Source of the DNA: SAR324 cluster bacterium
GTDB taxonomy: Bacteria > SAR324 > NAC60-12
Assembly: GCA_015232315.1 (NCBI GenBank)
Contig: JADFZZ010000003.1
Coordinates: 156,732 to 220,731, forward strand
Direction of reading: 5' to 3'
Length of the DNA: 64,000 bases
Both the position numbers and the translations under genes were made by a program. Below the pieces are notes generated by a model. The model was not told the origin of the DNA, did not search any database, and saw only the letters and a list, made by a program, of their open reading frames with translations. Positions 17,972-37,677 of the stretch are shown piece after piece; positions within the stretch are counted from its first letter, which is position 1; each line of letters starts with the position of its first letter.

Positions 17972-18204
17972 TCTTGATCTCCGAATAGGGTACTTCCTCC
18001 TTGATGTATCTACCAACTAGGTTCGTTTAACATGCTGCCACAAAGGATGCAAGCCCTCTGGAAAACAGGAATCAAAGGTGGAAACGGCCATCACATACTC
18101 ATAAGTTGGCTGAAGAATTTTAAACACAACCTTTATAGAACATTTCAGGGCAGTTAAAGACAAAAATCATGTCAATATACCCAATTTTTATTTTATTTTT
18201 TCCT

Positions 18205-18547: not shown

Positions 18548-18558
18548 AAAAGGCTGTT

Positions 18559-20091: not shown

Positions 20092-20150
20092 TGAATACAG
20101 TTCCTCAAAAACCAATACAAAAATGACACAGACTCAACTCTAGATTCACA

Positions 20151-20325
20151 TAGATTAGCGTGAGTTCGGGATAATGATTATCATGGAATAGACATTCCCC
20201 TAACCCCTTTCCAAGGGGGAATTATGAAGCAATCCACCGAGATAATCCCCTTTGAGGGGGGCTTGGGGGGGCAATGCGGATTTAATTCGCTTTAATTTCT
20301 TAATCCCGAACTCACGTTAGATTAG
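20151..20325. repeat. MITE-like element related to family 1 (variant with its own termini)
   Basis: Terminal inverted repeats are agattagcgtgagttcggga / tcccgaactcacgttagatt. It contains the family hairpins cccctaacccctttccaaggggg and cccctttgagggggg, but in swapped order. Confidence 0.7.
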
Positions 20326-20362
20326 AAATATCCACCAAATTAGAAAACGTGGCAGGAAAGCA

Positions 20363-21118: not shown

Positions 21119-21216
21119 TTTTGAGGTGTTGAGATAGTATTCTGTGATTTTCTCATGTTTGTGATGCGATGCGTCCTTAAATTTTTATTACTATTAACCC
21201 CCGGGATTTAAATTTT

Positions 21217-21987: not shown

Positions 21988-22004
21988 ATCAAGGTTGTAT
22001 AAAA

Positions 22005-22472
22005 ATGGCCAAAGACAAGAAAAAAGGAAGGAATCAAATCATCCTTATACTGGTGTTGATCGCCTTGGTAATTTCCGGTGGAACAGGTGTTATTTTAAGG
22101 CATGAACTGACTCATCGTGAGGCCGGTTTGATTTTTGGACATTTCCCGAAACCCACAGAACCTCGTTTGATGCAACCCATCGTCAATCGGGTACTGGGCA
22201 CAGAACCTAAAAAAGTTCTCATTAGACGCATTCCTAAAATCAGTAGCAATATGCGCATGCCTCATGCCTACTGGGGGGAATGCAGTAGATGTCATTTGTA
22301 CAGTGATAAAACGGTCAATTATAGCGCGACACCAGTAGGAAAGTTACTGGGAGAAGTTTCATCCATTAAAAAAGTAGGTCCACGCATCAGGCCTGATTCA
22401 TTCATGCCCCATCCTGCCGCAGGGCGATGTATCATGTGTCATGATATTGTCATAGACAGTAGTAAATCTTAA
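22005..22472 (+). CDS. mamT: MamT-like double-magnetochrome protein
   Basis: 155 aa: TM, then MPHAYWGECSRCHLY and MPHPAAGRCIMCHDIV (two CxxCH units preceded by P-H). Confidence 0.6.
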   Translation: MAKDKKKGRNQIILILVLIALVISGGTGVILRHELTHREAGLIFGHFPKPTEPRLMQPIVNRVLGTEPKKVLIRRIPKISSNMRMPHAYWGECSRCHLYSDKTVNYSATPVGKLLGEVSSIKKVGPRIRPDSFMPHPAAGRCIMCHDIVIDSSKS

Positions 22473-22543
22473 TTCATCTCAATGGTGTCACCTCTCCAAA
22501 ATCATCTGGTCGTCAACTGTTGCACTTATAAAAGAGATCAATC

Positions 22544-23869
22544 ATGTCAATGATCGCAAGCTGGCTCTGGAATCCTCTGCTCAGCTTTATATATATTGAA
22601 CTGGGTGTGCTGATACTCGTCCTCACTGGATTTGCCGCCTGGCGTAACGTGATTCCAGCTCTAAGGAACAGTTGGACGCAAAGAAACCTCCATAAAAAAC
22701 AAGAGGATGACCATGCTCGTTATATCTCACCTGTTCATGGATTTTTTGCCGCACTGGCCGCAAGCGTTGGCGTTGGTAATTTAGCGGGTGTCGGTACTGC
22801 CATTCATCTGGGAGGCCCGGGGGCCTTGTTCTGGATGTGGGTTTCAGCACTGGTTGGGATGAGTTTTCGTTTGTGTTCTGTCTGGTTGGCAATGCGTTAT
22901 CAAAGCGAGGATCACACAGATCTGGCTTATGCAACGCCCATGTCCTACTTGCAACGATTACAACCGGGTTGGGCCTGGATTCCTGTGGCGTTGGCCACCC
23001 TGTTGATGGTTAAGGGCTTTATCACCTCCAATCTGATTCAATCCAACTCCGTTGCTCATGCGTTGCAGGACGAATTGGGAATTTCCAGTTTTCTGGTTGC
23101 AATCTGCATGTCTGCTCTGGTGGCGTTTGTGATTCTTGGCGGGATGCAGAGAATCGTAGATTTCAGTGTGACAGTGGCGCCCTGGATGGTGCTGGTTTAT
23201 TTCATTGGTGGAATGGTCATTTTATTATCAAACCTGTCAGCCACTGTTCAGGTTATTGGTCTGGTTTTTAAGCATGCTTTCACACCTTATTCCGCCACTG
23301 GTGGACTGATTGGTTATGGCGTTCTGCAAAGCATCCAGTTTGGAACATCCAGAGGCATTTTTTCGCATGCCTCTGGAATCGGAGTTGCCCCGTTTCTTCA
23401 TGCAACGAATAATGCCAGTAAAAAGGATAATGCCTATCTTGCCGCATTTGTTCCCGTTGTAGATACCTTGATTGTCTGTTCGGTGACAGGCCTGGTCATC
23501 CTGACTGTTGGAAACTGGACCCGGTTCAATGGTGCCTATTTAACCTCTTCCTCTTTTCAGTCGTTTTATGGAAACTGGGGCGTTGTGATGCTCATGACTT
23601 GTTTGGTCGTCTTTGCGTTCACCACCATGATCAGTTGGGCCTATTATTCTGAACGATGTTATCAATACCTTGGCGGAACAAGAATCCGGGCATTCCGTTG
23701 GTTCTTTGTGTTCATCACGTTTTGCGGTCCTTTTCTTCCAGTTCGCCTGATTTGGTCAGTTGCGGATATCATGATTGGATTGGTCATTATTATCCATCTC
23801 TTCCCTCTGGTTTATCTGGTTCTACAGCATCGAGATGATTTACTGAGAGAATTGGTTGGCGATCACTGA
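22544..23869 (+). CDS. Alanine/glycine:cation symporter (AGCS) family transporter
   Basis: 441 aa. Signature ALAASVGVGNLAGVGTAIHLGGPGALFWMW. Polytopic membrane protein. Confidence 0.8.
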   Translation: MSMIASWLWNPLLSFIYIELGVLILVLTGFAAWRNVIPALRNSWTQRNLHKKQEDDHARYISPVHGFFAALAASVGVGNLAGVGTAIHLGGPGALFWMWVSALVGMSFRLCSVWLAMRYQSEDHTDLAYATPMSYLQRLQPGWAWIPVALATLLMVKGFITSNLIQSNSVAHALQDELGISSFLVAICMSALVAFVILGGMQRIVDFSVTVAPWMVLVYFIGGMVILLSNLSATVQVIGLVFKHAFTPYSATGGLIGYGVLQSIQFGTSRGIFSHASGIGVAPFLHATNNASKKDNAYLAAFVPVVDTLIVCSVTGLVILTVGNWTRFNGAYLTSSSFQSFYGNWGVVMLMTCLVVFAFTTMISWAYYSERCYQYLGGTRIRAFRWFFVFITFCGPFLPVRLIWSVADIMIGLVIIIHLFPLVYLVLQHRDDLLRELVGDH

Positions 23870-24285
23870 GAAAAACCTCTGTTGATAAATCCGGTTAAAA
23901 TCATTCAGCATCGGTGTAATGGCATGAAATCATTCATGTAATCTGTTTTTTTTTGGGGGGGGTAGTAAAAAGATTTGTCCATAAAAATGTTTTTTATCAT
24001 GAATAAAAATATATTAAATATATAGTTTATTGTTGAAATTGTTGCATCAATTGGCTATCTACCCAGTGGGTACAGATTGCACTGTTTTTTATTCCTTTGA
24101 TCTCATCAGGGGGTGGCTTGGAAGTTGCTCATGCTGATTTTGTTTGTGCAATCAGAAAACAGGAGTTCCGTAAAACTCCCGTTTGCTCATTTGCATGAAG
24201 TAGTAACAGTAACTGTTCTCGTCGAAAAATCAGATGAGAAAATTGGTACTTACGTACCGTAATCGTTGAATAATAAGGAGACGAT

Positions 24286-24528
24286 ATGATTGATAAATTG
24301 GGTGATCTTGTTGAGTATGGTATAGAAGGGATCGAATATATTGGCACGGGTTGCAAAACAGTTGCCGGATGTGACTCTTATAGTTTTTATACTGGCACAA
24401 AAGCCGCGGCGTTTTTTGGTATCGGGGGAATCGGTTTTTCAGTGCTTGGACCGGCAATCTTGCTTTTGCTGGCTGTAGGTGGAGTGTATTGGTGGTATCT
24501 GAGCAATCAACCCGGTGAGGTTGAATAG
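24286..24528 (+). CDS. Small membrane protein, unknown function
   Basis: Strong RBS AAGGAGA 6 nt upstream. 80 aa with a Gly-rich C-terminal TM, AAFFGIGGIGFSVLGPAILLLLAVGGVYWWYL. Confidence 0.5.
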   Translation: MIDKLGDLVEYGIEGIEYIGTGCKTVAGCDSYSFYTGTKAAAFFGIGGIGFSVLGPAILLLLAVGGVYWWYLSNQPGEVE

Positions 24529-24680
24529 GAACAAACTACAGGTTTCTTTATGGTGGAAACCTTTGTAAAACCCGCGTTTGCGGGAACGAGGCCCAGCTTC
24601 GTAAGTAGGAACCGTGCCCTATGTCACAGGGCATGTTCAAAAATCCTTGATGTGATTAAAACTAAATTTAGAGGAATGAT

Positions 24681-25007
24681 ATGCCTGAATCAAAGGTTTT
24701 GGAAAGTGAGTTTACGATGAAATCGTATGTATTAGCGTTCATGAGTTATCTTGGCATTTTATGTTTGGTGCCAATCCTGTTGAATAAGGATGATGAATAT
24801 GTTTATTTCCATGCCCGGCAAGGATTAGTATTGTGGATATGGAGCGTCATTGCGATTTTCGCACTCTATATTCCTGTCATTGGACAATTCTTCTTCGGCT
24901 TATCTGCTTTTATCATCTTAATATATTCATTTGTCGGGATAACTTCCGTATTGCTGGCCAAAGCCTGGAAACTTCCGTTTGTTGGTGATTGGTCAGAAAA
25001 ATTATAA
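24681..25007 (+). CDS. Small multi-TM protein, DUF4870-like
   Basis: RBS AGAGGAA. 108 aa. ...LNKDDEYVYFHARQGLVLWIW... resembles the F-H-A-x-Q motif of DUF4870-type membrane proteins. Confidence 0.55.
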   Translation: MPESKVLESEFTMKSYVLAFMSYLGILCLVPILLNKDDEYVYFHARQGLVLWIWSVIAIFALYIPVIGQFFFGLSAFIILIYSFVGITSVLLAKAWKLPFVGDWSEKL

Positions 25008-25138
25008 AAAAAGAGATGAGATCGGAGTTCAACTCACAAAATGCTCCCTTGAAGTCAGTTGGTTTTTAGTCGAAAAAACTATGGATCAACTGATTTTCGT
25101 CCATATCCAATAATGTATTCTCATGATAATCAATTTTT

Positions 25139-25325
25139 AGAGCTGTGCAGGTACTTTTTTAGCCACGAAGTACACGAAGAACACAAAGTAAAAAAGGGAA
25201 TATGCACCAGAAAACTTGAAAATCAGGGTTTCACGGAGGACTTCATTTATATAAAAAACCTTTTTTTTCGTGTTCTTAGCGTTCTTAGCGGCTCATTTTC
25301 AAACCCACCTGCACAGCTCGAATAA
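25139..25325 (+). repeat. MITE-like palindromic element, family 2, copy 2
   Basis: Near-identical to 4321-4513. Termini are gagctgtgcaggt / acctgcacagctc. Track ORF 25059-25325 merely reads through it. Confidence 0.85.
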
Positions 25326-25749
25326 TTTGAGGATGAAATCCTGTGACCGGTCACCACGGTAGTTCACTTCTTCTGATACAGCAGGAGTTTTCTACATAAA
25401 AAACATGAGAGCATGGTTCTGAGAATACATGCGTCATAGCTGAAAATTTGTTAGAGGTGTTTTTATTCAGACATTAACAATCAATATCCCCTTAACAGCG
25501 TAATAAATGTGTAGTCTGAGCAGGAAAAAATTCTTTTTTGAAAGTTAAACCAATCCCAGACAGAAAACGTTAGTTTTGGCGCCCCTGGAAGCCGGATCAA
25601 GTCCGGCATGACAATCACTCCACAGTGTCATTCCGGGCGAAGACCCGGAATCCAGAAAATTCCACAAAACTACACATTTCTGCTTAGGTTTGGTTTATTT
25701 CAGAATTGTGTCATGTTTCGGTGCTAAGTATAAAAAATGGAGTTGTGAT

Positions 25750-25944
25750 ATGCCAAGTATAGTTGTAGGAACATTGTCTTTTGCTTTAGGATTGTGGAGT
25801 TTGTTCATTTGGTGGTGGTCTGTGGCTGAATTTTTACGGGGATTCACACCTATCGCTCTCATATTGTTCGGACTGATTGCCATAGGCGCATCAATGTCCA
25901 CAAAGGAAAACAGGACAAAGGACAAAAAGGATAATGACTTATGA
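25750..25944 (+). CDS. mamI: MamI (copy 2)
   Basis: ATG 25750 lies 7 nt after GGAG. 64 aa: MPSIVVGTLSFALGLWSLFIWWWSVAEFLRGFTPIALILFGLIAIG. The stop overlaps the mamE-2 start (ATGA). Confidence 0.85.
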   Translation: MPSIVVGTLSFALGLWSLFIWWWSVAEFLRGFTPIALILFGLIAIGASMSTKENRTKDKKDNDL

Positions 25945-28679
25945 GTATTAAAGATACCTGTCCTCAACGAGAAACTTGCTTGAACAGTGATGATTGTGGC
26001 GATAAAAAGATTTGTCCGCAAAGATATAAAAAATATATCGTCATCACTGCAATCATTTCTTTAATTTTTGTATTTGCGGTCGTCCGATACGAATTGTATG
26101 ACGAATACTATGGCTCACAGAAAAATACCAGCCATCATGCGATCTTCCCGACACCGGATGCAAATCAATATCAGCCTCGGAACCCTGTGCCTGGTCCATC
26201 GCTGTCTCAACAAAATACTCAGCCTGGCAATGGTAATGGCGGTCCATATCGTTCACCAAACCCCAATGGAGGTCACCGTTCCCCCCCCAATAACGGCCCA
26301 CTCCGATCACAGAATCCTAATGGAGGAGGTCCATACCGTTCACAAAATCCTGTGAATGCTGTTGCTGTGGCGCAAACTCAAACTCCGATGGCAACCATGC
26401 CTGTCCAGCAAAGCCCCCTGGTACAGATAATCGAGTTTGCCAAACAAACGGTGGTGAACATCAGTACAATTCGCCCTATATCTACCCAAAAACAGAATCA
26501 AAATCCGAATCAGCAAGCTGGATTCACTTCACCTAATAGTGGTGAAGGAATGGAAAGTATCGGATCAGGCGTAATTGTCACCCAGGATGGGTATATTGTC
26601 ACCAATTATCATGTTGTGCAAAAATCACCGGATCTTTACGTCATCGTTTTCACAGACAATGGAACATCCCAGTACCCTGCTGAGATCATTGCCATGTCAG
26701 AACGACTTGATCTGGCGTTGATAAAGATTGAACCGAATATGATGCTTCAACCAGCTCCCTTGAGTAATGATCGCAGACTCAGCCTGGGCGAAGAAGTCGT
26801 CGCGATTGGCAGTCCTTTTGGTCTGGACCAGACTGTGAGTAAAGGGATCATTTCCGGCTTAAAAAAATCAATCAGAATTGACAACATCACCCATAAGAAT
26901 CTGATCCAGACAGATGCCGCCATCAATCGGGGGAATTCTGGAGGACCATTGATTGATATGACCGGTTATGTCATTGGGATAAACACAGCCATTTATGTCC
27001 CATCCGCGTCTTTTGCAGGGATCAGCTTTGCGGTTTCTTCCAAGGATGCGATCGAATTTTTAGAGGACTTGATTCGGTTACCACGCATTCAGCCAAATCT
27101 GAATGCCCATGCAAAAGCAATTAGGGTCGCGGCGGTAAACGCACCGGCAATTGTGGCCGGAACGCCCAATCCGCATGGTGATAGAGGTCCCTGTGAACTA
27201 TGTCATCAGATTATCGGAAATCAATCCACCGGACAGTTCAACAATGCCATGCCTGTCGCGGCGGTCATTGCGCCACCCATCATGGCAGGTGCCGCCATGC
27301 CGCATGGCGACAGGGGACCTTGCGAACAATGTCATCAAATCATCAATCCAACTCAGTCTAATGCGGCCATGCCTGTCGCCGCGATCATTGCGCCACCCAT
27401 CATGGCAGGTGCCGCCATGCCACATGGTGACAGGGGACCTTGCGAACAATGTCATCAAATCATTGGCAATCAATCACCTGGACAGCAATTCGCTGCTTCC
27501 CCCAATGTTGTCGCGCAACAGAATCAATTCGCCATGCCACCCGGACGTTATCAGGGGAATCAGGTTCCAGGCCAACCACAGGGAGCAAATGTGGCGTTCA
27601 CTGTGCCAAACATGGATTTGGAGTGGATGGGGGCCTTCCTGAAACAAATGACTCAAGATGTCGGTGGCGGTGTGTTTTTAAGTGCGATTACACCGAATTC
27701 CAAGGCACAGAAAGCTGGTTTGCAAGCAGGTGATATCATCTTTCGGGTGGAGGGGAAAAAAATACTGGATCCAAAAGATCTGATTGAGTTTACAAAGAAT
27801 ATCAATGATACCGCACGCGTGTCAGTGATCAGGAATGGGAATAAGCAGGATATCTTTGTGGACCTGCAGAACAAACCCGCGCCTGTTGACAATGTCGGTC
27901 CACCGGAAGTAACTCCACCAGATCAACCTGCGGCAGTAGGAAATGGTATTCAACAACCGATTGCTGGAAATGGTGCTGAACCACCGTTTGCTGGAAATGG
28001 TGCTGAACCACCGTTTGCGGGAAATGGTATTCAGCGTCCTCCCAGACGCAGACCAGCTCTGACTGAACTTGAATTATTAGGAATGGAGCTTACCCCGAAT
28101 ATGAACGGACAAGCTCAAGTCACTGATATTGGACGTAATTCAGTGGCATTCCGGTCTGGCATTCGAATGAATGATCTGATTCTTTCAATTGATCAGGTTC
28201 CCATTGAGTCACTTGCCACCGTCAATGAGTTGATCAATATCAACCAACCGGACAATGCTATTGAAATTGTACGGGGTAACCGTCAATTTTTTATCAGACT
28301 CACCGACAACCCCATGCCACAGAATCAACAGGCAATGGCTGGAAATGTCGCTTTGCAGAACCGTATGTCGGCAAATCAAGGGGGTGGGGCAGTGAATGGA
28401 GCTATGCAGAATCCTGCACCAGGACCAGCAGTCACAGAACTGGAAATATTAGGAATGGAAATTAAACCCACTCCAGAGGGCGGGGCGCTTGTAAGAAATG
28501 TTGATATCAATACCCTGGCATACAATGCGGGAATTCGAAAAAATGATATCATCGTCTCAATTGATCAGGTTCCAATAAAAGATCTTGCTACGATGCAGGA
28601 AATGATCAACGTCAAACAACCCGATAATCTGGTTGAAATTGCGAGAAATAATCGTAAGCAATTTTTAACTCTTAAATAA
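25941..28679 (+). CDS. mamE: MamE (copy 2): protease core + three magnetochromes + three PDZ domains
   Basis: 912 aa: Cys-rich N-terminus, TM, Pro/Asn/Gly-rich linker, intact triad contexts TNYHVV / LDLALIKI / GNSGGP. Three magnetochrome units each read PHGDRGPC-E-x-CHQII. Three PDZ-like segments follow. Confidence 0.9.
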   Translation: MSIKDTCPQRETCLNSDDCGDKKICPQRYKKYIVITAIISLIFVFAVVRYELYDEYYGSQKNTSHHAIFPTPDANQYQPRNPVPGPSLSQQNTQPGNGNGGPYRSPNPNGGHRSPPNNGPLRSQNPNGGGPYRSQNPVNAVAVAQTQTPMATMPVQQSPLVQIIEFAKQTVVNISTIRPISTQKQNQNPNQQAGFTSPNSGEGMESIGSGVIVTQDGYIVTNYHVVQKSPDLYVIVFTDNGTSQYPAEIIAMSERLDLALIKIEPNMMLQPAPLSNDRRLSLGEEVVAIGSPFGLDQTVSKGIISGLKKSIRIDNITHKNLIQTDAAINRGNSGGPLIDMTGYVIGINTAIYVPSASFAGISFAVSSKDAIEFLEDLIRLPRIQPNLNAHAKAIRVAAVNAPAIVAGTPNPHGDRGPCELCHQIIGNQSTGQFNNAMPVAAVIAPPIMAGAAMPHGDRGPCEQCHQIINPTQSNAAMPVAAIIAPPIMAGAAMPHGDRGPCEQCHQIIGNQSPGQQFAASPNVVAQQNQFAMPPGRYQGNQVPGQPQGANVAFTVPNMDLEWMGAFLKQMTQDVGGGVFLSAITPNSKAQKAGLQAGDIIFRVEGKKILDPKDLIEFTKNINDTARVSVIRNGNKQDIFVDLQNKPAPVDNVGPPEVTPPDQPAAVGNGIQQPIAGNGAEPPFAGNGAEPPFAGNGIQRPPRRRPALTELELLGMELTPNMNGQAQVTDIGRNSVAFRSGIRMNDLILSIDQVPIESLATVNELININQPDNAIEIVRGNRQFFIRLTDNPMPQNQQAMAGNVALQNRMSANQGGGAVNGAMQNPAPGPAVTELEILGMEIKPTPEGGALVRNVDINTLAYNAGIRKNDIIVSIDQVPIKDLATMQEMINVKQPDNLVEIARNNRKQFLTLK
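27244..27470 (+). repeat. Tandem 120-bp duplication inside mamE-2 (duplicated magnetochrome unit)
   Basis: 27244-27343 and 27364-27463 are nearly identical and encode AMPVAA(V/I)IAPPIMAGAAMPHGDRGPCEQCHQII twice. Confidence 0.9.
27939..28046 (+). repeat. Four tandem 27-bp units inside mamE-2
   Basis: They encode GNGIQQPIA-GNGAEPPFA-GNGAEPPFA-GNGIQRPP. The two central units are identical at the DNA level except the last codon. Confidence 0.85.
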
Positions 28680-28695
28680 ATAGGGGGGATCCAGT

Positions 28696-30816
28696 ATGGC
28701 TAGTGGAGAAAGTAATCAAATAAGAAGACAGTCTACAAGACAAGCAGATGCATCAGAGACTGTTCTGCAATTGAACAGGCTTGAGACAAACCCCTGGAGA
28801 AATACCGGGGAGAGTTCACGAATTTCTTCGTCAATTATCACAAGAACCTTGCCTCGATCAAATAATGAAGATTCTGACCAGCCAAGGAACTTTGTCAAAT
28901 TTTCAGAAAACGAAAATCCATGGAAAAAAGCTGAAACCCAACAACCCGAAAAGGTCGGACCCCTGAACATTACTAAAAGGACCCATGTATACCATGCAAC
29001 GAATAATCCATGGGATCGAGCCGCTGAGCGAGAGCGTATAGCCGCGGAACAACGCCTTGCGGCGCAAAAGGCTGAAGAGGAAGCAAAAGCGGCAATTGCC
29101 GAGCAGGAACGACAATTGAGAGAAGCCGAACTGGAACGCATCACAGTTCAACGGGCTTTGGATGAAAGAAAAGCGGCAATTGCCGGGCAGGAACGACAAT
29201 TGAGAGAAGCCGAGTTGAAACGTTTGACTGAGCAGAAAAAAGAAGAGACTCGAAGAGCGGCTTTGGCTGAACAGGAGCTTCAGGCAAAAGAAGCTGAACT
29301 GAAGCGTTTGGCCGCACAAAAAGAAACTGAGGCCCGAAGAGCGGCGTTGGCTGAGCAGGAGCTTCAGGCAAAAGAAGCTGAACTGAAGCGCTTAACTGAA
29401 CAAAAAGCGGCAGAGGCGGGAAGATTGGCCTTGGTAGAACAGGAACTTCTGGCAAAACAACGGGAACTTGAACAGCAATCCTCGAAGGAAAAAGAAAAAG
29501 AGTACCTTGCCGAACAGGAAATTCAGACAACTGAAGAAGATTCGGAAACGCAGGATTCCGAACATGAGCAGGAACTTCAGGCAAAAGAAGCTGAACTGAA
29601 AATTTTAGCTTCGGAGAAGGCCGAAGAAGAAAGAAAAATTGCTTTGCTTGAGCAGGAGCGTCAGGCAAAAGAAACCGAATTGAAGCGTTTGGCCGCGGAG
29701 AAAACCGAAGACGAGAAAAGAGCCGCGATGGCAGAGCAGGAGCGTCAGGCAAAAGAAACCGAATTGAAGCGTTTGGCTGCGGAGAAAGCCGAAGACGAGA
29801 AAAGAGCCGCGATGGCAGAGCAGGAGCGTCAGGCAAAAGAAGCCGCATTAGAACTTCAAGTTGCTCAGAAAGCAGCAGAAACAAGAAAAGCGGCTCTTGC
29901 AGAGCAAGAACGTCAGTTAAAGGAAGTAGAGCAGGAACTTCACGCAGCACAGAAGGCCGAAGAAGAAAGAAGATTTGCCCTGTATGAACAAGAACGTCTG
30001 GCAAAGGAAGCTGAGGAGGACCGTTTGGAAAAGGAAGCAGAATTAGAAAAACAAGCCTTTGAAATTCCCGGTGAAAATACAAGCCGACGGGGTTTTAATA
30101 TTCCTAAAATCATGCTGGAACGCCAATCTGTTCAGGAACGTCAGGCAAAAGAAAAGGCAGAGGCTGAACTGAAAGCTTCTCAAGTAGCCCGGGAAGACCG
30201 GGCAAAAGAAAAAGCAGAGGCTGAAAGAACCGCATCCCTTGCGACCAGCGAAAGTCAGGCCCGTGAAGTGGAATCTGAACCACGGGTATCCCCGGAGAAA
30301 ACCACAAAGGTAGAAAATGAAACAGCACTGGTTGTTGTTAATACAAAGCAAAAGAAAAAAAGGTCTATAGCGGTTTCAGGTGTTGGAAGCAAACGTGTGT
30401 CTCTCCCAAAAGTGCGTGAGACTTCTGATAAAACAGACACTGTCAGGAAAAAAGTTGGTTTCGGATTTTTTAGAGCTAAAGCAAAAGGAGAAACCGAAAC
30501 CAAAAATGAAAATTCAGTCATCAAACCGGCTTTGCAAAGCCGACTTGGTTTTCGTAAAAAGGTAGAAACTGAAAATTCTGAAGCCAGGTCACAAACACCT
30601 AAAAAAATAAATTTCGGGAAATCCTTCAAATTACCGGATTTTTCAATAGCGTCATCCAAACCAAAACAGAAAATCAGTATTGAGGTTTCAGGAACTAAAG
30701 AAGCATCAACTTCCGAAACTGAAACGTCTTTAATCAAAGCCAGGTCAGGGAATACACTGGACTCTGGAAAAAAACTTTTTACTTCCTATGAAGTAAAAAG
30801 AAAGAAAAAAGCATAA
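28696..30816 (+). CDS. Highly charged repeat / coiled-coil protein at the mamJ position
   Basis: 706 aa. A G-rich RBS lies upstream. About eleven tandem 28-aa E/K/A/Q-rich repeats (e.g. AEQERQAKETELKRLAAEKAEDEKRAAM) are followed by a Ser/Lys-rich tail. No family recognised. Confidence 0.8.
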   Translation: MASGESNQIRRQSTRQADASETVLQLNRLETNPWRNTGESSRISSSIITRTLPRSNNEDSDQPRNFVKFSENENPWKKAETQQPEKVGPLNITKRTHVYHATNNPWDRAAERERIAAEQRLAAQKAEEEAKAAIAEQERQLREAELERITVQRALDERKAAIAGQERQLREAELKRLTEQKKEETRRAALAEQELQAKEAELKRLAAQKETEARRAALAEQELQAKEAELKRLTEQKAAEAGRLALVEQELLAKQRELEQQSSKEKEKEYLAEQEIQTTEEDSETQDSEHEQELQAKEAELKILASEKAEEERKIALLEQERQAKETELKRLAAEKTEDEKRAAMAEQERQAKETELKRLAAEKAEDEKRAAMAEQERQAKEAALELQVAQKAAETRKAALAEQERQLKEVEQELHAAQKAEEERRFALYEQERLAKEAEEDRLEKEAELEKQAFEIPGENTSRRGFNIPKIMLERQSVQERQAKEKAEAELKASQVAREDRAKEKAEAERTASLATSESQAREVESEPRVSPEKTTKVENETALVVVNTKQKKKRSIAVSGVGSKRVSLPKVRETSDKTDTVRKKVGFGFFRAKAKGETETKNENSVIKPALQSRLGFRKKVETENSEARSQTPKKINFGKSFKLPDFSIASSKPKQKISIEVSGTKEASTSETETSLIKARSGNTLDSGKKLFTSYEVKRKKKA
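29030..30050 (+). repeat. Array of 84-bp (28-codon) tandem repeats within the 706-aa gene
   Basis: Units 29651-29734 and 29735-29818 are almost identical. Earlier units (about 29270-29440) form a second near-identical pair, and the outer units are more diverged. Confidence 0.85.
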
Positions 30817-31041
30817 TCATTTTCTAAAATTTGTAATCGTAAAAAATTTCCTGCTGTCAATAATTTGGTGAAGAAATCCTGTGGTTTCCCACGATGTCAT
30901 CCCCGTGAAAACGGGGAACCAGGAGTGCGCCGATGGATTCCGTGTCAAGCACGGAATGACGCCGGGCAAAGGTTTGAACCGGATGCCATCGTCAGAAAAT
31001 TTACAGCGGGAAAAATTATTAGTCCAATCATGAGGGGGTAT

Positions 31042-32067
31042 ATGAAAAAAACACAATTGAGAATAGGTATTGATCTTGGCACATCAAGAACAGCAGTTCG
31101 TTCAGACCGTGGCGCAAAAGCCGTTTTTCCATCGGTGGTCGGGTATCCACGAGACATTATTGGAACCAAGCTGTTGAATGGAACAAAAGCCGTGGGTGAT
31201 GATGCCATTGAAAAAAGGTCATACTTGACGCTGATCAATCCTCTGGATTTGGGCGTGATCAAGGAAACAAGTGAAATCGATATGGAAGCGGCAAAAGATA
31301 TTTTGGAACATGCCATAGCGATTACGCAACCGGAAGAACATGATGAGATTTGTGCTGTGATTGGTGTTCCTGCCAGAGCCTCCTTTTCCAACAAGGAAAC
31401 TCTGCTTCGCTTGGCAAAAGAACTGACTGAAGTGACACTGGTCGTTTCTGAACCATTCATGGTGGCCTATGGGATGGGCAAACTGAACAAGGCTATCATG
31501 ATTGATATTGGTGCCGGAACAACGGATATTTGCGCGTTGAAAGGGGTTGTGCCCAATTCAGAGGATCAGGTTACAATCTCAAAAGGCGGAGATCATATTG
31601 ACCATCTGTTGAAGGCGATGATACAGGAACATTACCCTGATATTCAGATCACCAAACGCGTTGTTCAGAATATTAAAGAAAAATACTCCTTCGTTGGAGA
31701 CATCAAAGAACCGGTGATCGTTCAGTTCAGAGCCAATGGAAAACCCAAGGAATATGATGTGTCTAAAGAAATAAAAGCCGCCTGTGAATCTTTGATAGCG
31801 CCGATTGTCGAGCAGGTTGAATATTTACTGGTCCGGTTTGATCCTGAAGATCAGGAAGAAGCATTACTGAATATTTATCTTGCTGGAAACGGATCTCTGA
31901 TCAGGGGCCTGGACAAAGCAATCGCGGAAAAACTGAAGGAATGTGGTGAGGTCAAGGTGTCCTGTGTGGCTGATCCTGATTTTGCAGGATGCAATGGGGC
32001 CTTGAAGCTCGCGGTGGATCTGCCGATTGAGCACTGGCATCAAATCGGAGACGTCATAGGATCTTAA
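31042..32067 (+). CDS. mamK: Actin-like magnetosome filament protein MamK (copy 2)
   Basis: ATG 31042 follows GAGGGGG. 341 aa with LRIGIDLGTSRT, MIDIGAGTTDI and IYLAGNGS. The track ORF start at 30865 runs through REP-like hairpins and is unlikely to be real. Confidence 0.9.
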   Translation: MKKTQLRIGIDLGTSRTAVRSDRGAKAVFPSVVGYPRDIIGTKLLNGTKAVGDDAIEKRSYLTLINPLDLGVIKETSEIDMEAAKDILEHAIAITQPEEHDEICAVIGVPARASFSNKETLLRLAKELTEVTLVVSEPFMVAYGMGKLNKAIMIDIGAGTTDICALKGVVPNSEDQVTISKGGDHIDHLLKAMIQEHYPDIQITKRVVQNIKEKYSFVGDIKEPVIVQFRANGKPKEYDVSKEIKAACESLIAPIVEQVEYLLVRFDPEDQEEALLNIYLAGNGSLIRGLDKAIAEKLKECGEVKVSCVADPDFAGCNGALKLAVDLPIEHWHQIGDVIGS

Positions 32068-32071
32068 ACTC

Positions 32072-32299
32072 ATGGTAATGGCAAAACGCATTTTTTCATT
32101 CATTCTATGGGCATTGGTCCTGGTTTTTACCCTGGAAAATTTTGATATTGTCCAGGTGCGATTTATTGCAGGGCCTCTTGTGAAAATGCCCCTTGCGTTT
32201 GTTTTGGTGATCGGCTTTGTTGCCGGTTATCTACTTGCCGCAATCAGCACAAGAATAAAAATATACAAGCGTGACAGAGAACTGGAAGATAATGATTAA
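32072..32299 (+). CDS. mamL: MamL-like small two-TM protein (LapA-domain-like)
   Basis: 75 aa. FSFILWALVLVFTLENFDIVQVRFIAGPLVKMPLAFVLVIGFVAGYLL followed by a basic/acidic tail. It sits between mamK and mamM, as mamL does in mamAB operons. Confidence 0.45.
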   Translation: MVMAKRIFSFILWALVLVFTLENFDIVQVRFIAGPLVKMPLAFVLVIGFVAGYLLAAISTRIKIYKRDRELEDND

Positions 32300-32319
32300 A
32301 GCGGAACGATCGGTCAAAA

Positions 32320-33222
32320 ATGCAATTTTCTAAATGTACTGTTTGTTATAAAACAATTGGCTGGACGGGGCTTGTCTCCAATATTTTTCTGTCAGGCTTG
32401 AAGTTGTTTGTCGGGATCGTCGCAGGCTCGCAGGCGCTGATTGCGGACGCGATGTATTCATTTAAAGATCTCATTTCGTCGGTTCTGATCATCATCGGAT
32501 TGAAAATTTCCTTAAAACCGGTTGATCTTGAGCACCCTTACGGGCATGGCAAGGTTGAATTTATCCTTACCTTGGTGGTCAGTGTGGTCTTTATCGGTTT
32601 GACGGGATTAATACTCCTGTTGACCATGGACCATTTTTTTCAGGGCTACCACAAACCACCTCACCTTATCGCGTTAGCTGTCGCTGTATTTTCCGTCGTC
32701 GCGAATCTGTTCCTGTTCAAATATACCAGATGTGTTTCGACTCAAATCAACAGTCCAATGGTCAAAACCTTATCCAAGCATCATGGTGCTGACGCCTTGT
32801 CATCCGTCGCTGTTTCGGCGGGTATCATCGGCGCGCATTACATGGGCCTGATCTGGATGGATTCGCTGGTAGCCGTCTTTGAAACGATCCATCTGTTATA
32901 TCTCGGTGTTGAGATATTCTGGGAATCGTTTAAAGGTTTGATGGATTATTCCGCTCCAGCCGATGTTTTGAGAAAAATTCAACAGACAGTATTGGACTTT
33001 GACGAGGTAAAGACGGTAGAAACCCTCAAAACAAGGCAAGTTGGACAAGGTATATGGATTGATATTGTGATTGGAGTGAATCCTGATTTGAGAGTGGATG
33101 AAGCCTATGATGTCGGGTGTCAGGTTGAAGCTGTGCTGTTTGAAACGATCGAGCATGTGGCCGCTGTGAATGTACGTTTTGGAGCTCATGATTCCAGAAA
33201 ACTCCTTACTCAAGGATTGTAA
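32320..33222 (+). CDS. mamM: MamM (CDF family)
   Basis: 300 aa. The N-terminus MQFSKCTVCYKTIGW, the TM2 site LIADAMYSFKD (Tyr/Asp) and TM5 HHGADALSS match what I recall of MamM. A C-terminal CDF domain is present. Confidence 0.85.
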   Translation: MQFSKCTVCYKTIGWTGLVSNIFLSGLKLFVGIVAGSQALIADAMYSFKDLISSVLIIIGLKISLKPVDLEHPYGHGKVEFILTLVVSVVFIGLTGLILLLTMDHFFQGYHKPPHLIALAVAVFSVVANLFLFKYTRCVSTQINSPMVKTLSKHHGADALSSVAVSAGIIGAHYMGLIWMDSLVAVFETIHLLYLGVEIFWESFKGLMDYSAPADVLRKIQQTVLDFDEVKTVETLKTRQVGQGIWIDIVIGVNPDLRVDEAYDVGCQVEAVLFETIEHVAAVNVRFGAHDSRKLLTQGL

Positions 33223-33224
33223 TC

Positions 33225-35072
33225 ATGAAAAAAGAACAATTTTTTTGTGAAAGCCAGTGGAAAATAGGAGCGGCATTTCTGACAATTATCGCTGTTTCCT
33301 TATTTTTCTGGGGTGTCCATATTCTTACGGAGCACCACGAATACAACATCTCCTATGTTCCAGAGACATCGACTCCGGATTCTGCCAAGGCAGTTTCAGT
33401 CAAAGCTGAAGTTGCTCAAAAACCTGTATTTCCAGCCGATTTTGAAAAGACGATTGTCTCGATTGGAATTGACAGTGGCCAGGATACTCCACTTGCGATA
33501 TTAGGTTCGGGGGTCCTTGTCAGCGATGATGGGCATATTGTGACGGCTGACCATTTGGTTGCCGGTTTATCCGGTTTACATGTTCTGCAAAACAATGTTC
33601 GTTATGAATCACATCTCATCAAAAGAGTTGCCAAGTCCAACATAGCCCTCTTGAAAATTGAATCACTCAAAGCCTTTCCCTTTACCTCCATTGATTGTTC
33701 GATGATTGAAATTGGTACGCCTGTTTACGCGTTTGGAAGGGATCAAGGGATCATAGCAAAAGAAGGCATTGCCCGGAATACAGGTGTGTCTCTGGCCATC
33801 AATGACATGATCTATCCTGACCTGATCACAACTGACGCGATCTATACCTGGGCTCAAAGCGGTGGACCCTTGATGAATGTTTTCGGCAATATGGTAGGAC
33901 TGAACATCGCGATCAGTGGCCCACAGAATTCGATTCAGGGTTTTGCTGTACCGGCACCAACTATTTGCTCAAAATTCCGAGAGATTGTTCACGTTGATTC
34001 GATCACAAATATTAAGGTTTATGCCGGGGGCCTCACCAGTCAGTTCTGGAAAAACACCAGAGAAACAGCGAGTGAATACGCTACTCAAATTCGAAATACG
34101 ATTGAATCCAGTTCATCATCTGACTTGATGGTCTACATCGAAGGGAATAAGGGGGATCTCTGGAAACAAGCCAGATTTGTCGCGGATCGAATGGCTGAAA
34201 TCTACAATAAGGCTGATGGGATCAACTACTTGAACAATGCGGTGAGTGATCCTGAACTCAATTTTTTCGGCTACCATATCAGTGGGGTTATCGGACTCCT
34301 GCTCCTCGGGTTTGTCTCCGGTATCAGTGCCGGTATGGTGACAATGGGCGGTGGGATCATTAAAGTCAGTGGCTTGATGATTATTTTTGGCTATGGTCTG
34401 ATCATCATCCGGCCTGTGGCCTATATCACTAATATATTTGTCTACAGTGCCGCGGCCCTGCGTTACAAAAAAGACAATCTGATTTCCTGGCACAACGTAA
34501 AACCGCTCATTCCATTTGCGCTTTTTGGTTTCGTTTTTGGCTATTTTACAGGGATTTATTTAAACAATTCAACAATCAGAATGATGCTTGGGATATATGC
34601 GTTATTGATTGGAATAAAAGTGGTCACAGAAATTATAAGAAGCGCCATGGGATATCCTGAATTTGAAGGGATTTCTCAAAACCAGACAGGTCATCGCTTC
34701 AAAAATAGCTGGCTGGGATTGCCGATGGGAGTTATGAGTGGTATTTTGGGAATCAGCGGGGGTGTCATTGAGGTTCCATTACAGCGTTATGTTGCCAAAG
34801 TTCCTTTGAAAGAGGCCATTGCCAACAGCTCCGTGTTAGTTTTCTGGACATCTTCACTGGGTGCTGTAATCTCCATGGTGCATGGTGCGGGGATTGGCGC
34901 GTTTGAGATCGATACCCCTCTGATCCTGGCATTGATTGTAATACCCGGTGCGTATTTCGGTGGAATGGTGGGAGCATGGCTTACCAAAATAATGCCGATA
35001 AACCTCCTCAAGAGTATCTACTGTGTCTTGATGTTCTTAATTGCGGCACGAATGATGTTATTCACTTTTTAA
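33225..35072 (+). CDS. mamO: MamO: trypsin-like domain fused to a TauE/SafE-type transporter
   Basis: 615 aa. N-terminal protease-like domain (GSGVLVSDDGHIVTADHLV; SNIALLKIE; AQSGGPLMN). The C-terminal ~250 aa have two TauE-type half-repeats (MGGGIIKVSG..., ISGGVIEVPLQ...). Confidence 0.88.
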   Translation: MKKEQFFCESQWKIGAAFLTIIAVSLFFWGVHILTEHHEYNISYVPETSTPDSAKAVSVKAEVAQKPVFPADFEKTIVSIGIDSGQDTPLAILGSGVLVSDDGHIVTADHLVAGLSGLHVLQNNVRYESHLIKRVAKSNIALLKIESLKAFPFTSIDCSMIEIGTPVYAFGRDQGIIAKEGIARNTGVSLAINDMIYPDLITTDAIYTWAQSGGPLMNVFGNMVGLNIAISGPQNSIQGFAVPAPTICSKFREIVHVDSITNIKVYAGGLTSQFWKNTRETASEYATQIRNTIESSSSSDLMVYIEGNKGDLWKQARFVADRMAEIYNKADGINYLNNAVSDPELNFFGYHISGVIGLLLLGFVSGISAGMVTMGGGIIKVSGLMIIFGYGLIIIRPVAYITNIFVYSAAALRYKKDNLISWHNVKPLIPFALFGFVFGYFTGIYLNNSTIRMMLGIYALLIGIKVVTEIIRSAMGYPEFEGISQNQTGHRFKNSWLGLPMGVMSGILGISGGVIEVPLQRYVAKVPLKEAIANSSVLVFWTSSLGAVISMVHGAGIGAFEIDTPLILALIVIPGAYFGGMVGAWLTKIMPINLLKSIYCVLMFLIAARMMLFTF

Positions 35073-35133
35073 TCCGGGATAATTTCGGGAGCAACCCTGA
35101 CTTGATTATCAAGTAATTACCGGGGCTCTCATA

Positions 35134-35281
35134 CAATGTCATCAACTCTGAATGGTGCTGAGCATTAATTCCCCCTTGGTTTAAGGGGGATAGGGGGATG
35201 TAATTCTGAGTGTTAAATCCCCCATACCCCCTTTGTAAAGGGGGATTATCCAGCGAAGAATTTTTTAAGTTGACGACATTG
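35134..35281 (-). repeat. MITE-like element, family 1 (~150 bp), with flanking direct repeat
   Basis: Termini are caatgtcatcaac / gttgacgacattg. The core carries hairpins cccccttggtttaaggggg and ccccctttgtaaaggggg. GGGCTCTCATA occurs at 35123-35133 and again at 35281-35291. Confidence 0.85.
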
Positions 35282-35400
35282 GGCTCTCATAGCCCGATGT
35301 GTTCGGAGGAACTCCGTATAAAAATAACAAAGACCGAATCAGAACGCATGCCATTGAGTGTCTGGTTCGTACAAAAAACAATCGTTAATGTGGAGAAACC

Positions 35401-36063
35401 ATGGCAAATAAAAAGAAAATAGAGGTTGATGTTGATTTTTCAGATACCCTCAGTTTTTACCTGCATTCCGGATTGAAGACAGCGCAGAAAATTTCTGATG
35501 CGTCGATTGAGTGGTATCGGAACATTTTTTCTCTCGAAAATGAGGAAAAAACTGATTATTTTTATGCCAAAGGAATTGATCACGCAAAGAAAGGAAAATA
35601 CGCAAAGGCGATTCCCTTACTAAGCGCAGTCCATCAGGGCATGCCCCAGGATGCTGAGGTATTACACTATCTTGGACTATCCTATCTGAAAACAGGTGAA
35701 GAAGAGAAGGGACTCGCCTGTTTGGAAAAAGTGACAAAAATTGAAGGAACCCATACAAAAACAATGATCCTGCTTGGTTTGCTCTATAGCAAAAAGAAGG
35801 ACTATGAAAAAGCGGTCGCGGTTCTTGAAAATGCGGTTGCCTATGAAAAAAAGGATCCCGCGCTGTATTATCGCCTGGGGTTTGCGTATGATAATCTGAA
35901 AAAACATGACAAGGCCATTCAATGTTTTGAAAAAGCACTTGATCTGGATCCCGACAATGTCAATGTTTGCCAGGCTCTTGGACTTGCGCATGAGTCTCAG
36001 GGAAATCGGGACGAGGCCGTTGCGTATTTCAAGAAAGCCCTGGAAATGGAAGAGAAAGTGTGA
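35401..36063 (+). CDS. mamA: MamA (TPR protein)
   Basis: 220 aa. Consecutive TPR units (AEVLHYLGLSYLKTGEEEKGLACLEKV..., ALYYRLGFAYDNLKKHDKAIQCFEKAL..., NVCQALGLAHESQGNRDEAVAYFKKAL). It follows mamO, as in mamAB operons. Confidence 0.8.
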   Translation: MANKKKIEVDVDFSDTLSFYLHSGLKTAQKISDASIEWYRNIFSLENEEKTDYFYAKGIDHAKKGKYAKAIPLLSAVHQGMPQDAEVLHYLGLSYLKTGEEEKGLACLEKVTKIEGTHTKTMILLGLLYSKKKDYEKAVAVLENAVAYEKKDPALYYRLGFAYDNLKKHDKAIQCFEKALDLDPDNVNVCQALGLAHESQGNRDEAVAYFKKALEMEEKV

Positions 36064-36069
36064 GGCCCT

Positions 36070-36813
36070 ATGGGGGATGAAACCACAATTGACAGGGAAC
36101 AAGAGGAACGAATACGCCGCACAAGAGAACTGGCGGAGCGTTTGTTTCAGGATGAAATCAACCCCAAAAAAGCATCCCGCAAGAAAAAACAAGGTCCTAT
36201 CGTTTTAATTTATTTCATAGGATTTATTGTTTTTGCGATTTCAGTCTTATACCGTGTCAATATGTTCATTAGTTTGGAAGAAGAAGTTTTTGCCTCGGTG
36301 GGACAGATTGATGTCGCGTTGCAAAGACGAATGAATTTATTTGAGAATATTGTGAACACAACACTCAATCAAGGGATTCTGGAATATAAAATTGTTAAAA
36401 ATGTCGCGGATTCCCGTGCGGGTTTTGCTCAAAATTCTGAACTCAGTGGTGTGGTTGACAACCTGGAAAATCTGGAGGCTCTTAAATCCTCACTCGAGGG
36501 GGCTTCTTTTTCCAAACTGATTGCGCTGATGGAACAATATCCGGAAATAAAATTTTCAGACAACTATTCCCGGTTGATCAACAACCTGGTTGATCTGGAA
36601 GATCTCCTGCTTAGAAAACGAGATGCCCGAATTGAACAAATCCGCATTTACAATACCGCGATTACCACGTTTCCTTCAACGTTTCTCGCAAAAATAACAG
36701 GGTTTAAGCGCTATGAATATTTCGAAATGGAGCTACAGTCCCTCCATAACGTGCCAATGTTGAAACCAACTATGTTTAAGCGACTTTTACCTGAATCCAG
36801 GAAGAGCCCATGA
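36070..36813 (+). CDS. mamQ: MamQ (LemA family), copy 2
   Basis: 247 aa. LemA core (LQRRMNLFENIVN...YPEIKFSDNY...RIEQIRIYNTAITTFPSTF). Colinear with copy 1. Confidence 0.88.
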   Translation: MGDETTIDREQEERIRRTRELAERLFQDEINPKKASRKKKQGPIVLIYFIGFIVFAISVLYRVNMFISLEEEVFASVGQIDVALQRRMNLFENIVNTTLNQGILEYKIVKNVADSRAGFAQNSELSGVVDNLENLEALKSSLEGASFSKLIALMEQYPEIKFSDNYSRLINNLVDLEDLLLRKRDARIEQIRIYNTAITTFPSTFLAKITGFKRYEYFEMELQSLHNVPMLKPTMFKRLLPESRKSP

Positions 36814-37676
36814 GATTTGAAGCCTGTAAACAATGCCGAACTGAACAGGGGATCCACTCCTTTTTAGTCAATCTGTTCATGGCCCTTTTTAAAGGGGTGC
36901 TGGGTGTTTTAACCGGAAGCGCGGCGCTGGTCGCTGACGGGTTGCATTCTTCAGCCGATGTGATCGCCACCAGTGTGACCATGGTCAGCGTTTGGATATC
37001 CGGAAAACCGGCAAGTAAATCCTATGCGTATGGCTATGGAAATATTCAGTTTATTTCCGCGGCAATTGTTGGAATGATCCTGTTGTTAGGTGCGCTTTAC
37101 TTATTTGTAAACGCCACCATCAACATCGTCAGTGGTCTCATCGAAAGCCCCAATATGCTGGCCGTGATTGGCGCCATCGTTTCTATCACCATGAATCAGT
37201 TATTGTTCCATTATCAAAAGTGTGTCGGGCAGGAAAACAACAGTCCGGCAATCATGTCCAATGCCTGGGACAATCGTTCGGATGCGCTTTCCTCAGCGGC
37301 GGTGTTGTTTGGAATCATTGTGGCTGTTTTAGGTTTTCCGATCGCGGATCCCTTGGCGGCTATCGCTGTTTCACTCGTAATCGTCAAGATCGCTGTTGAA
37401 CTTCTTATCGATGCGGTCAATGGATTGATGGATCATTCACCAGATATCACTGAATTGCATGAAGTTTATCGTGTTGCTGAAAGCATTGAAGGGGTTCGTG
37501 GTATTTCATCCCTTAAAATGAGACGTCATGGTGAAATAACACTGGTTGATATTGGAATCAAAGTTCCCCCGGATATGAGAGTTTATGAAGGCGATTTAAT
37601 TGCTCTGGCGGTGAAGGTAAAAGTTTCCAAATCCATGGAGCATGAAACGGACGTTCAAGTTTTTGTAGGAGTTTGA
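36810..37676 (+). CDS. mamB: MamB (CDF family)
   Basis: 288 aa. The N-terminus MRFEACKQCRTEQ, TM2 LVADGLHSSAD (His/Asp) and TM5 WDNRSDALSS (Asp/Asp) match my recollection of MamB. ATGA overlap with the mamQ-2 stop. Confidence 0.88.
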   Translation: MRFEACKQCRTEQGIHSFLVNLFMALFKGVLGVLTGSAALVADGLHSSADVIATSVTMVSVWISGKPASKSYAYGYGNIQFISAAIVGMILLLGALYLFVNATINIVSGLIESPNMLAVIGAIVSITMNQLLFHYQKCVGQENNSPAIMSNAWDNRSDALSSAAVLFGIIVAVLGFPIADPLAAIAVSLVIVKIAVELLIDAVNGLMDHSPDITELHEVYRVAESIEGVRGISSLKMRRHGEITLVDIGIKVPPDMRVYEGDLIALAVKVKVSKSMEHETDVQVFVGV

Positions 37677-37677
37677 A

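Follow-up and report, generated by a model that had tools for sequence, protein, structure and literature searches.

A charged, helical rod-type protein between mamE and mamK in a SAR324 magnetosome island, a candidate derived member of a mamK-upstream adaptor family

Outside Magnetospirillum, the link between magnetosomes and MamK is still to be explained; no orthologue of MamJ has been identified there, and adaptors not yet recognised are probable (PMC10653835). A 64,000-nt stretch of a SAR324 cluster bacterium (GenBank assembly GCA_015232315.1, contig JADFZZ010000003.1, positions 156,732 to 220,731; the whole stretch is hereafter the window) raises the question at a single gene, here called X, which encodes a 706-aa protein and occupies the slot between mamE and the second of two mamK copies (28696..30816, + strand). 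A first-pass annotation of this DNA had placed X in the position of mamJ and proposed it as an unrelated, coiled-coil analogue of MamJ. X is probably an organiser of magnetosome chains specific to its lineage, not an unrelated MamJ stand-in, and we favour, with moderate confidence, the reading that it is a derived, soluble rod-type member of a family of adaptors encoded upstream of mamK, docking via short terminal motifs. The evidence that points to this reading is gene neighbourhood together with motifs in the encoded proteins. A mamK-adjacent adaptor with a variable centre is already known; what is new is an anchor-less helical-rod design and the common terminal motifs.

Pfam and NCBIfam scans gave the gene order mamI-mamE-X-mamK-[75 aa]-mamM-mamO-mamA-mamQ-mamB-mamS, and the assignment of X to the mamJ slot is therefore correct. 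The upstream neighbour that defines the slot, mamE (25941..28679, +), contains a trypsin, three magnetochrome and three PDZ domains. The downstream neighbour and putative partner, mamK copy 2 (31042..32067, +), was identified as actin-like by a domain scan and by a MamK protein search, and is followed by a CDF transporter (mamM), a MamO-like trypsin plus TauE and the TPR protein MamA. The predicted 706-aa open reading frame (ORF) is present and is preceded by a ribosome-binding site rated strong (GGGGGG; 28683..28688, +; taken from the sequence itself) at a distance of 7 nt from the ATG, and X begins 16 nt beyond the mamE stop codon. Promoter and terminator scans around X gave chance-level signals only. 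Because X lies 16 nt from mamE, has a strong ribosome-binding site and is on the same strand as mamK with no above-chance terminator between them, X, mamE and mamK are likely one operon.

Loci for comparison (L-numbers below) were fetched, among them two SAR324 metagenome-assembled genomes (MAGs), L052 and L054, and 'Deltaproteobacteria bacterium TL4' (hereafter TL4). Genome and metagenome scans with MamK returned no island above 59% identity; the protein search with MamK copy 2 found a 99% identical, truncated MamK in L052, and identities were 69% to the TL4 MamK and 60-68% to those of other SAR324 MAGs. By these sequence comparisons the island is of SAR324 type.

The slot protein of TL4 shows which parts of X are kept over this distance. 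It is 422 aa long and carries NPW at residues 31, 71 and 95; the three NPW motifs of X lie at residues 32-34 (ETNPWRN; 28789..28797, +), 74-76 (NENPWKK; 28915..28923, +) and 104-106 (TNNPWDR; 29005..29013, +) and contain every tryptophan of the protein (3/3). In the tail, the TL4 elements KKKRTVAVSVV and LGFGAFKGFGF, the latter one of its GF-rich basic patches, match KKKRSIAVS and the aromatic-basic patches of X. X ends in a conserved near-terminal peptide, ...GKKLFTSYEVKRKKKA (30766..30813, +; found by a motif scan of SAR324-clade loci), in which LFTSYEV is residues 694-700, and TL4 ends in ...GKKLVESYEIVRKPK, also given as ...GKKLVESYEIVRKPKRH. When the N-terminus, the last 67 residues and the full length of X were searched separately against 6,594 background ORFs from the fetched loci, the syntenic TL4 ORF was the single top match each time, and these three individually weak matches, taken together with synteny, are persuasive.

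The terminal peptide is not confined to this pair. A relaxed pattern ([LFMIV]F[TVE]S[YH][ED][VI] followed by Lys/Arg) was searched in 2.0 M six-frame residues (~1 Mb of loci) and occurred seven times, in every case (7/7) 4-12 residues before the stop of a mamK-flanking ORF of a SAR324-clade locus, and nowhere else in those residues. In L054, ordered mamE-parA-343 aa-116 aa-mamK, both proteins that follow parA (L054a and L054b) end in LFTSYEVVKK and the larger has one NPW. Two further TL4 proteins, encoded beside the other mamK of that island, have the ends FLFTSHEVVKKRK and KLFTSYEVRKKPKRSK. Among ORFs of at least 300 aa, NPW was found only in mamK-upstream proteins, including those of a Nitrospinota MAG and an unclassified metagenome contig. 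X belongs to a set of SAR324-clade mamK-flanking proteins that have NPW and LFTS[Y/H]EV-KK in common. The termini are kept while the centres differ, with 28-aa repeats in X, helical EEQRKA hexapeptide repeats in the TL4 core and acidic V/E/T repeats in the SAR324 slot protein L055. The peptide is unlikely to act as a C-terminal ligand of PDZ or TPR type, since the stretch between it and the C-terminus varies in length and sequence.

L055 also connects this set to the slot proteins of other lineages. Among the islands fetched with MamK, most of those from Magnetococcales, Nitrospinota and Thiotrichales have before mamK a gene whose product, 270-720 aa long, is acidic, repetitive and rich in Ala/Glu/Val/Pro and ends in a conserved glycine-rich hydrophobic module (VESLGxGI...GGGNIVIGAVG). 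This matches the published architecture of MamJ, a soluble Ala-rich acidic repeat part followed at the C-terminus by a glycine-rich integral membrane helix, whose insertion is assisted by MamF-like proteins and without which chains are not formed (PMC11628618). L055, which is partial, combines acidic repeats, the glycine-rich module and the terminal peptide of X (DLLFVSYDVKKKQ), and in an alignment of the module-bearing proteins (A1) this peptide lines up with the Magnetococcales ends ...IFRAFKPAKKK. It is because of this combination in one protein that X looks like a derived member of a single positional family; with the common terminal motifs, it makes the description of X as unrelated or non-homologous too strong. 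The module-bearing proteins of Magnetococcales, Nitrospinota and some SAR324 further resemble X in having a variable repeat centre and a basic stretch before the C-terminus in the same slot, members L007, L042 and L043 carry NPW or xPW motifs, and the group's end follows the pattern hydrophobic-F-x-[S/A]-[Y/F]-x-x-KKK, which the KLFTSYEVKRKKK end of X fits although X stands outside A1. They differ in the module itself and in an isoelectric point (pI) of 4-5, neither of which X has. A profile search with the module (A1) returned three short hypothetical proteins only and no link to a named MamJ, and none of the Pfam or NCBIfam models matched any slot protein.

Two smaller ORFs beside mamK genes were also recorded. 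A 149-aa ORF after MamK copy 1 (window 15282-15731, -) and a 144-aa ORF before the long MamK of TL4 (L059 634-1068), which ends in LFTSHEVVKK, have in common a K/R-x-x-[VP]-VSSLG motif similar to the beginning of the glycine-rich module; the two ORFs align only weakly with each other (E = 0.11). L054 has a second mamK (P0010), which lies at the contig end with only non-coding sequence upstream and so gave no neighbourhood test.

X itself is predicted to be cytoplasmic and tripartite, with a disordered N-terminus bearing the NPW motifs, a helical centre and a disordered basic tail ending LFTSYEV-KRKKK. The whole protein has a pI of ~8.5, a net charge of +1 and no hydrophobic segment; its 19-residue hydropathy maximum is 0.07 and its glycine maximum in 40 residues is 12%, compared to 1.3-2.05 and 20-28% in the anchor-bearing slot proteins. 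The N-terminal region (residues 1-104; 28696..29007, +) is disordered in a single-sequence AlphaFold2 (AF2) model (predicted local distance difference test score, pLDDT, <50) and is the fastest-diverging part between two strains. The centre, with a net charge of -23 and no Pro-rich repeats, was modelled as helices at residues 105-276, 287-455 and 472-523 (the third at 30109..30264, +; pLDDT ~80-93), in a model whose overall predicted template-modelling score was only 0.23. The tail (residues 524-706; 30265..30813, +) is disordered and basic by AF2, composition and hydropathy, and contains KKKRSIAVSGV and the aromatic-basic patches GFGFFRAKAK, LGFRKK and NFGKSFKLPDF. Its description as Ser/Lys-rich was borne out, with 17.8% Lys, 13.7% Ser and a net charge of +19 over residues 561-706.

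The two main helices are nearly the same length (172 and 169 residues) and each encloses a block of repeats. The tandem 28-aa repeats first reported were recovered (self-identity 0.48 at lag 28; 84-bp arrays at 29205-29457 and 29566-29916 in Tandem Repeats Finder), but their number is twelve and not about eleven. They are arranged as two blocks of six, three of the units being degenerate, with the consensus AEQERQAKEAELKRLAAQKAEEERRAAL. Block 1 (residues 107-274; 29014..29517, +) was delimited by the tandem-repeat search, lag identity and AF2, and block 2 (residues 290-457; 29563..30066, +) by the tandem-repeat search, AF2 and unit alignment. Between them a 15-aa acidic Ser/Thr/Asp/Glu insert (residues 275-289; 29518..29562, +; from the repeat register and AF2) moves the register and falls at the break between helices 1 and 2.

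The long coiled coil that had been predicted for this centre is not borne out. Three long helices are modelled, but no heptad signal was found in them, the power of hydrophobic periodicity at 3.45-3.65 residues being not above that of dinucleotide-free shuffles, and in the best register the a/d positions are 22% strongly hydrophobic (49% with Ala) and ~30% charged. The best-conserved positions of the 28-aa unit are Glu and Gln and not hydrophobic residues. Compared to the single alpha-helix (ER/K) pattern, the helices have a charged fraction of 0.45-0.49, with Glu-to-Lys/Arg pairs mildly enriched at i+4 (~1-2 standard deviations above shuffles) and ~2.5-3.6 standard deviations above at i+3. 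Given the lack of heptad periodicity and the conserved Glu and Gln positions, we name the centre a charged alpha-helical rod, be it monomeric or oligomeric, and not an established coiled coil. If fully extended, the modelled helices would measure ~25, 25 and 8 nm, in a centre of ~420 residues.

X is a real, functional gene under moderate constraint, as judged from its sequence in two strains and from its repeat units. The DNA of L052 is 97-98% identical to window 20617-31808; its copy of X likewise has 706 codons, without indels, and an equal number of repeats, L052 being the only further strain that could be compared. The ratio of nonsynonymous to synonymous divergence (dN/dS) was 0.28 overall, 0.26 in the N-terminus, 0.14 in the helices and 0.50 in the tail (all on small counts), against 0.05-0.12 for neighbouring mam genes. 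Between units, the proportions of differing nonsynonymous (pN) and synonymous (pS) sites gave a pN/pS of 0.34. Two adjacent units flagged at first as near-identical (29651-29734 and 29735-29818) do match at 82 of 84 positions, and correspond to an in-frame pair within block 2 (29647-29730 and 29731-29814, +; by unit comparison) starting at residues 318 and 346. This is the sole recent pair (pS 0.12); all others have a pS of 0.4-0.9, near saturation, and a pN of 0.1-0.3. The array is therefore mostly old and under purifying selection, with one recent duplication, and the proposal that it is evolving by recent unit duplication stands for that pair and fails for the rest. The intact frame in two strains, the dN/dS of 0.28 and the low pN between units against a near-saturated pS are the grounds for regarding X as functional.

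Two further features of the repeat region were observed. An antisense ORF of 313 aa (29141-30082, -) runs across the repeats and is taken as an artefact of repeated Glu/Ala/Lys codons and not as a gene, since the ribosome-binding site, the dN/dS and the unit-conservation signal all belong to the sense frame. Between the window and L052, an 862-bp identical tract (window 29309-30171) covers the repeats; it is the longest in 11 kb, its flanks differ by 1.5-6%, and the average divergence of the gene itself would predict ~13 differences. Recent recombination or a sweep, concerted evolution or an assembly effect are possible causes.

Searches with X on a larger scale returned no family. Pfam, NCBIfam and PHROGs scans were negative even at E = 10, no relative was found in the PDB by sequence or by Foldseek search of the AF2 model, and phmmer, blastp and hidden Markov models (HMMs) of 25 Magnetococcales/Nitrospinota slot proteins gave nothing alignable to X. 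A word-indexed search of 5.8 billion proteins gave two matches (E = 2e-4) to a secreted esterase with an AEQER-type low-complexity helix, which are look-alikes. In an exhaustive HMMER search of 1.84 billion representatives the X family was invisible; a sulfotransferase-like protein with its own 28-aa repeat and a leucine-rich-repeat protein were returned and were rejected as compositional/repeat matches. Queries for exact copies of X, MamB and MamK had no match. No published description of X or of SAR324 slot proteins was found, and the paper that reports SAR324 magnetosome clusters does not mention mamJ (PMC7602337).

How X might work can be considered against characterised proteins, of which MamJ, Mg-1g50 and the Mad proteins were compared by published description and not by sequence. 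MamJ of Magnetospirillum (with its paralogue LimJ) and X are alike in the mamE-mamK slot, a hypervariable repetitive centre, more conserved termini and a largely non-globular build, and would be alike in linking magnetosomes to MamK, which for X is a proposal. MamJ, whose N- and C-terminal regions are residues 23-81 and 293-426, is strongly acidic with Glu/Pro/Ala-rich, disordered repeats and is anchored by its glycine-rich membrane helix, whereas X is near-neutral, has a helical centre and has no anchor. Mg-1g50, the MamJ-like protein of Magnetovibrio blakemorei MV-1, is like X encoded directly upstream of mamK, escapes full-length BLAST detection, has no CAR domain and yielded no orthologues elsewhere; unlike X, which is known from the gene alone, it is 289 aa long, was found through similarity to the MamJ termini and is experimentally supported (PMC10653835). 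In MV-1 a MamJ-like protein encoded upstream of mamK-II improves MamK function (PMC10653835). In RS-1, coiled-coil proteins organise chains together with MamK (PMC12748827); Mad20, 23, 25 and 26 of deep-branching magnetotactic bacteria are, as X is predicted to be, soluble helical/coiled-coil island proteins without transmembrane domains (PMC12748827), but they belong to mad-type islands, while the X island is mamAB-type and the X helices have no clear heptad pattern. No Mad-family match was found in the Pfam/NCBIfam scans, libraries which may hold no Mad models.

On the reading of X as a derived rod-type adaptor, an ancestral glycine-rich membrane anchor would have been lost in the X lineage and the variable centre would have become the charged helical rod. 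The terminal motifs would be docking sites, with MamK filaments as the most likely partner because of the gene adjacency, the analogy with MamJ, whose terminal regions are required and whose CAR domain is not (PMC3905215), and the precedent of Mg-1g50. The basic aromatic tail may contact the magnetosome surface or another acidic partner peripherally, and the rod may serve as a spacer or tether of ~25 + 25 + 8 nm, changeable in length by the gain or loss of units. In this way X would link or space magnetosomes along the MamK filament without insertion in the magnetosome membrane.

Several points weigh against this reading. The partner is inferred from gene neighbourhood, and kinship to the relatives is argued from short motifs and collinearity, the X-TL4 alignments each being weak (E = 0.04-0.4 among the 6,594 ORFs). 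The glycine-rich integral helix on which MamJ function depends (PMC11628618) is missing from X, and X is not acidic, so that its attachment to magnetosomes is a difficulty for this reading; X therefore cannot work exactly like MamJ, and of the proposed functional analogy what survives is a sensible candidate for chain organisation. A parA-like gene precedes the slot protein in four related islands, and its ATPase, instead of MamK, could be the partner. In others (L005 and L058) the slot is empty, so the function would be dispensable or replaceable. Finally, the helix analysis is compatible with a monomeric as well as an oligomeric rod.

The best placed of the rival explanations, which we consider unlikely, is that X is a tether or spacer independent of MamK, with the basic tail on the nucleoid or on acidic lipids and the rod setting a magnetosome-magnetosome or magnetosome-scaffold distance. 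The charge and aromatic-basic patches of the tail and the near-equal lengths of the two main helices are consistent with it, as are the slot proteins L041 (5946-6875) and L042 (5323-6987), whose long histone-H1-like Lys/Ala/Thr/Pro tracts are similar to AlgP and PhaF, two proteins that tether to the nucleoid (PMC13052382), and hint at a magnetosome-nucleoid contact in those lineages. It leaves unexplained, however, that all peptide-carrying proteins adjoin mamK, and domain and PDB sequence scans found no DNA-binding or known lipid-binding domain in X.

The main rival, drawn from synteny, is that X is a cargo adaptor for the island's ParA/MinD-like ATPase, by analogy with McdB, the carboxysome adaptor of the ParA-type McdA; the terminal motifs would then contact the ATPase or the magnetosome, and MamK would not be a direct partner. 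We judge this quite improbable. Homologous parA-like genes lie between mamE and the slot protein, directly upstream of the latter, in L007 (6690-7448), L042 (4562-5326), L043 (6889-7650) and L054 (7843-8592), the L054 proteins that directly follow parA carry the C-terminal peptide of X, and in the window a parA-like gene is directly upstream of the disordered N-terminal extension (~175 residues) of MamK copy 1. McdB-type adaptors, like X, are very divergent, combine disorder with a helical core, in their case a coiled coil, and have a short aromatic terminal motif as their main conserved feature; McdB-type adaptors depend on a terminal aromatic residue (PMC13052382). But relatives of X, and not X itself, adjoin parA: the gene in the window (17234-18016, -; found by a scan of the window), which overlaps the start of MamK copy 1 (15709-17265, -; actin-like by domain scan), is ~10.7 kb away on the other strand, and the 30.7-kb island contig of TL4 has no parA and yet encodes three peptide-carrying proteins. 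The invariant C-terminal Trp of McdB has no counterpart in X, whose three Trp are all N-terminal and whose C-terminal motif has Phe and Tyr; X is also far larger, its cargo and scaffold differ, and a ParA-type magnetosome system is not covered in a 2025 review (PMC13052382).

That X is a fast-evolving filler, a decaying ORF or a generic housekeeping coiled-coil protein that merely lies in the island is very unlikely. Its lack of homologues in any library or large database searched and the empty slot of some relatives would fit, but the frame is intact and free of indels in two strains, the repeat peptide is kept across near-saturated synonymous divergence, the termini are conserved as far as TL4, where MamK is only 69% identical, the ribosome-binding site is strong, and the Pfam/NCBIfam scans matched no housekeeping coiled-coil family, the kind of homology that would have spoken for this explanation. 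Least probable of all is that X is a true MamJ orthologue, membrane-inserted exactly as in Magnetospirillum, for although it has the same slot, a variable repeat centre and a MamF-like gene nearby (24681-25007; Pfam annotation on L052), its hydropathy and glycine maxima fall far below those of anchored slot proteins, its pI is 8.5 and not ~4-5, and an HMM of the glycine-rich module had no significant match in the window.

With the derived rod-type adaptor preferred, a wider and more tentative synthesis can be put forward, which is less likely to hold than not. NPW and LFTS[Y/H]EV-KK could be portable magnetoskeleton docking signals, recognised by MamK or by a magnetosome-surface receptor, that connect otherwise unrelated SAR324 proteins to the chain machinery, be they rods, small acidic proteins or MamJ-like proteins with an anchor; a degenerate hydrophobic-F-R-A-F-K-P-x-K-K would be the conserved functional end of the Magnetococcales MamJ-like proteins, and X would represent an anchor-less 'ruler' class with its length set by the number of 28-aa units. 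The mamE-mamK slot is filled in many lineages by fast-evolving modular proteins, and the search for slot proteins in other islands did find SAR324-clade relatives with the same plan and a different repeat core. Their two short conserved motif sets are usable directly as binding peptides. One lineage appears to have exchanged an acidic, membrane-anchored design for a soluble helical rod, and X would then offer a natural experiment that asks whether an adaptor needs the anchor and the acidity of MamJ.

Between X and mamK copy 2 lies a 225-nt spacer (30817..31041, +), which is non-coding, given a 1-nt indel in L052, and is significantly structured as RNA, with several GC-rich hairpins, a fold z-score of -2.75 and none of 200 shuffles as stable. 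Its sequence was seen only in the window and L052, the TL4 spacer at the same position being 25 nt, and an Rfam scan of 28400-31300 gave no match. Its role may be to tune the X:MamK ratio through processing, attenuation or stability.

The island consists of two sub-clusters (window 18290-23869 and 25690-38256) with duplicated mamI, mamE, mamQ/LemA and mamK, which flank mamP, mamT and a Na:Ala symporter gene; the layout in TL4 is identical. No tRNA was found in the window. A 959-aa protein encoded shortly beyond the downstream end of the island (window 46629-49508), with response-regulator/histidine-kinase hybrids and HEAT-repeat proteins around it, has no Pfam match and contains a long Leu/Glu/Lys/Gln-rich coiled-coil-like stretch; NPW and the C-terminal peptide are both absent from it.

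L052 differs from the window at two further places. It jumps from inside mamK (window ~31808) into mamB, L052 10764-10890 being 100% identical to window 37305-37431, and is either a 5.5-kb deletion variant without mamL, M, O, A and Q or a chimeric assembly. From the MamF-like gene to the start of mamE (window 25117-26116) the two are hypervariable: counting indels, two 500-bp bins have 339 and 94 differing alignment columns, compared to ~5-45 in other bins. The MamE proteins have 912 aa (window) and 904 aa (L052).

A MamK-like actin (49-54% identical) was also found in Desulfobulbaceae and Desulfurivibrio (L013, L015-L018, L021, L035, L037, L038 and L046-L048). No flanking mam genes were seen in the loci inspected, and the gene is preceded by a conserved trio of ORFs, of ~576 aa, ~344-380 aa and a 160-208-aa Glu/Leu/Lys-rich coiled-coil-like ORF. 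These loci may represent a non-magnetosome cytoskeletal operon of MamK type.

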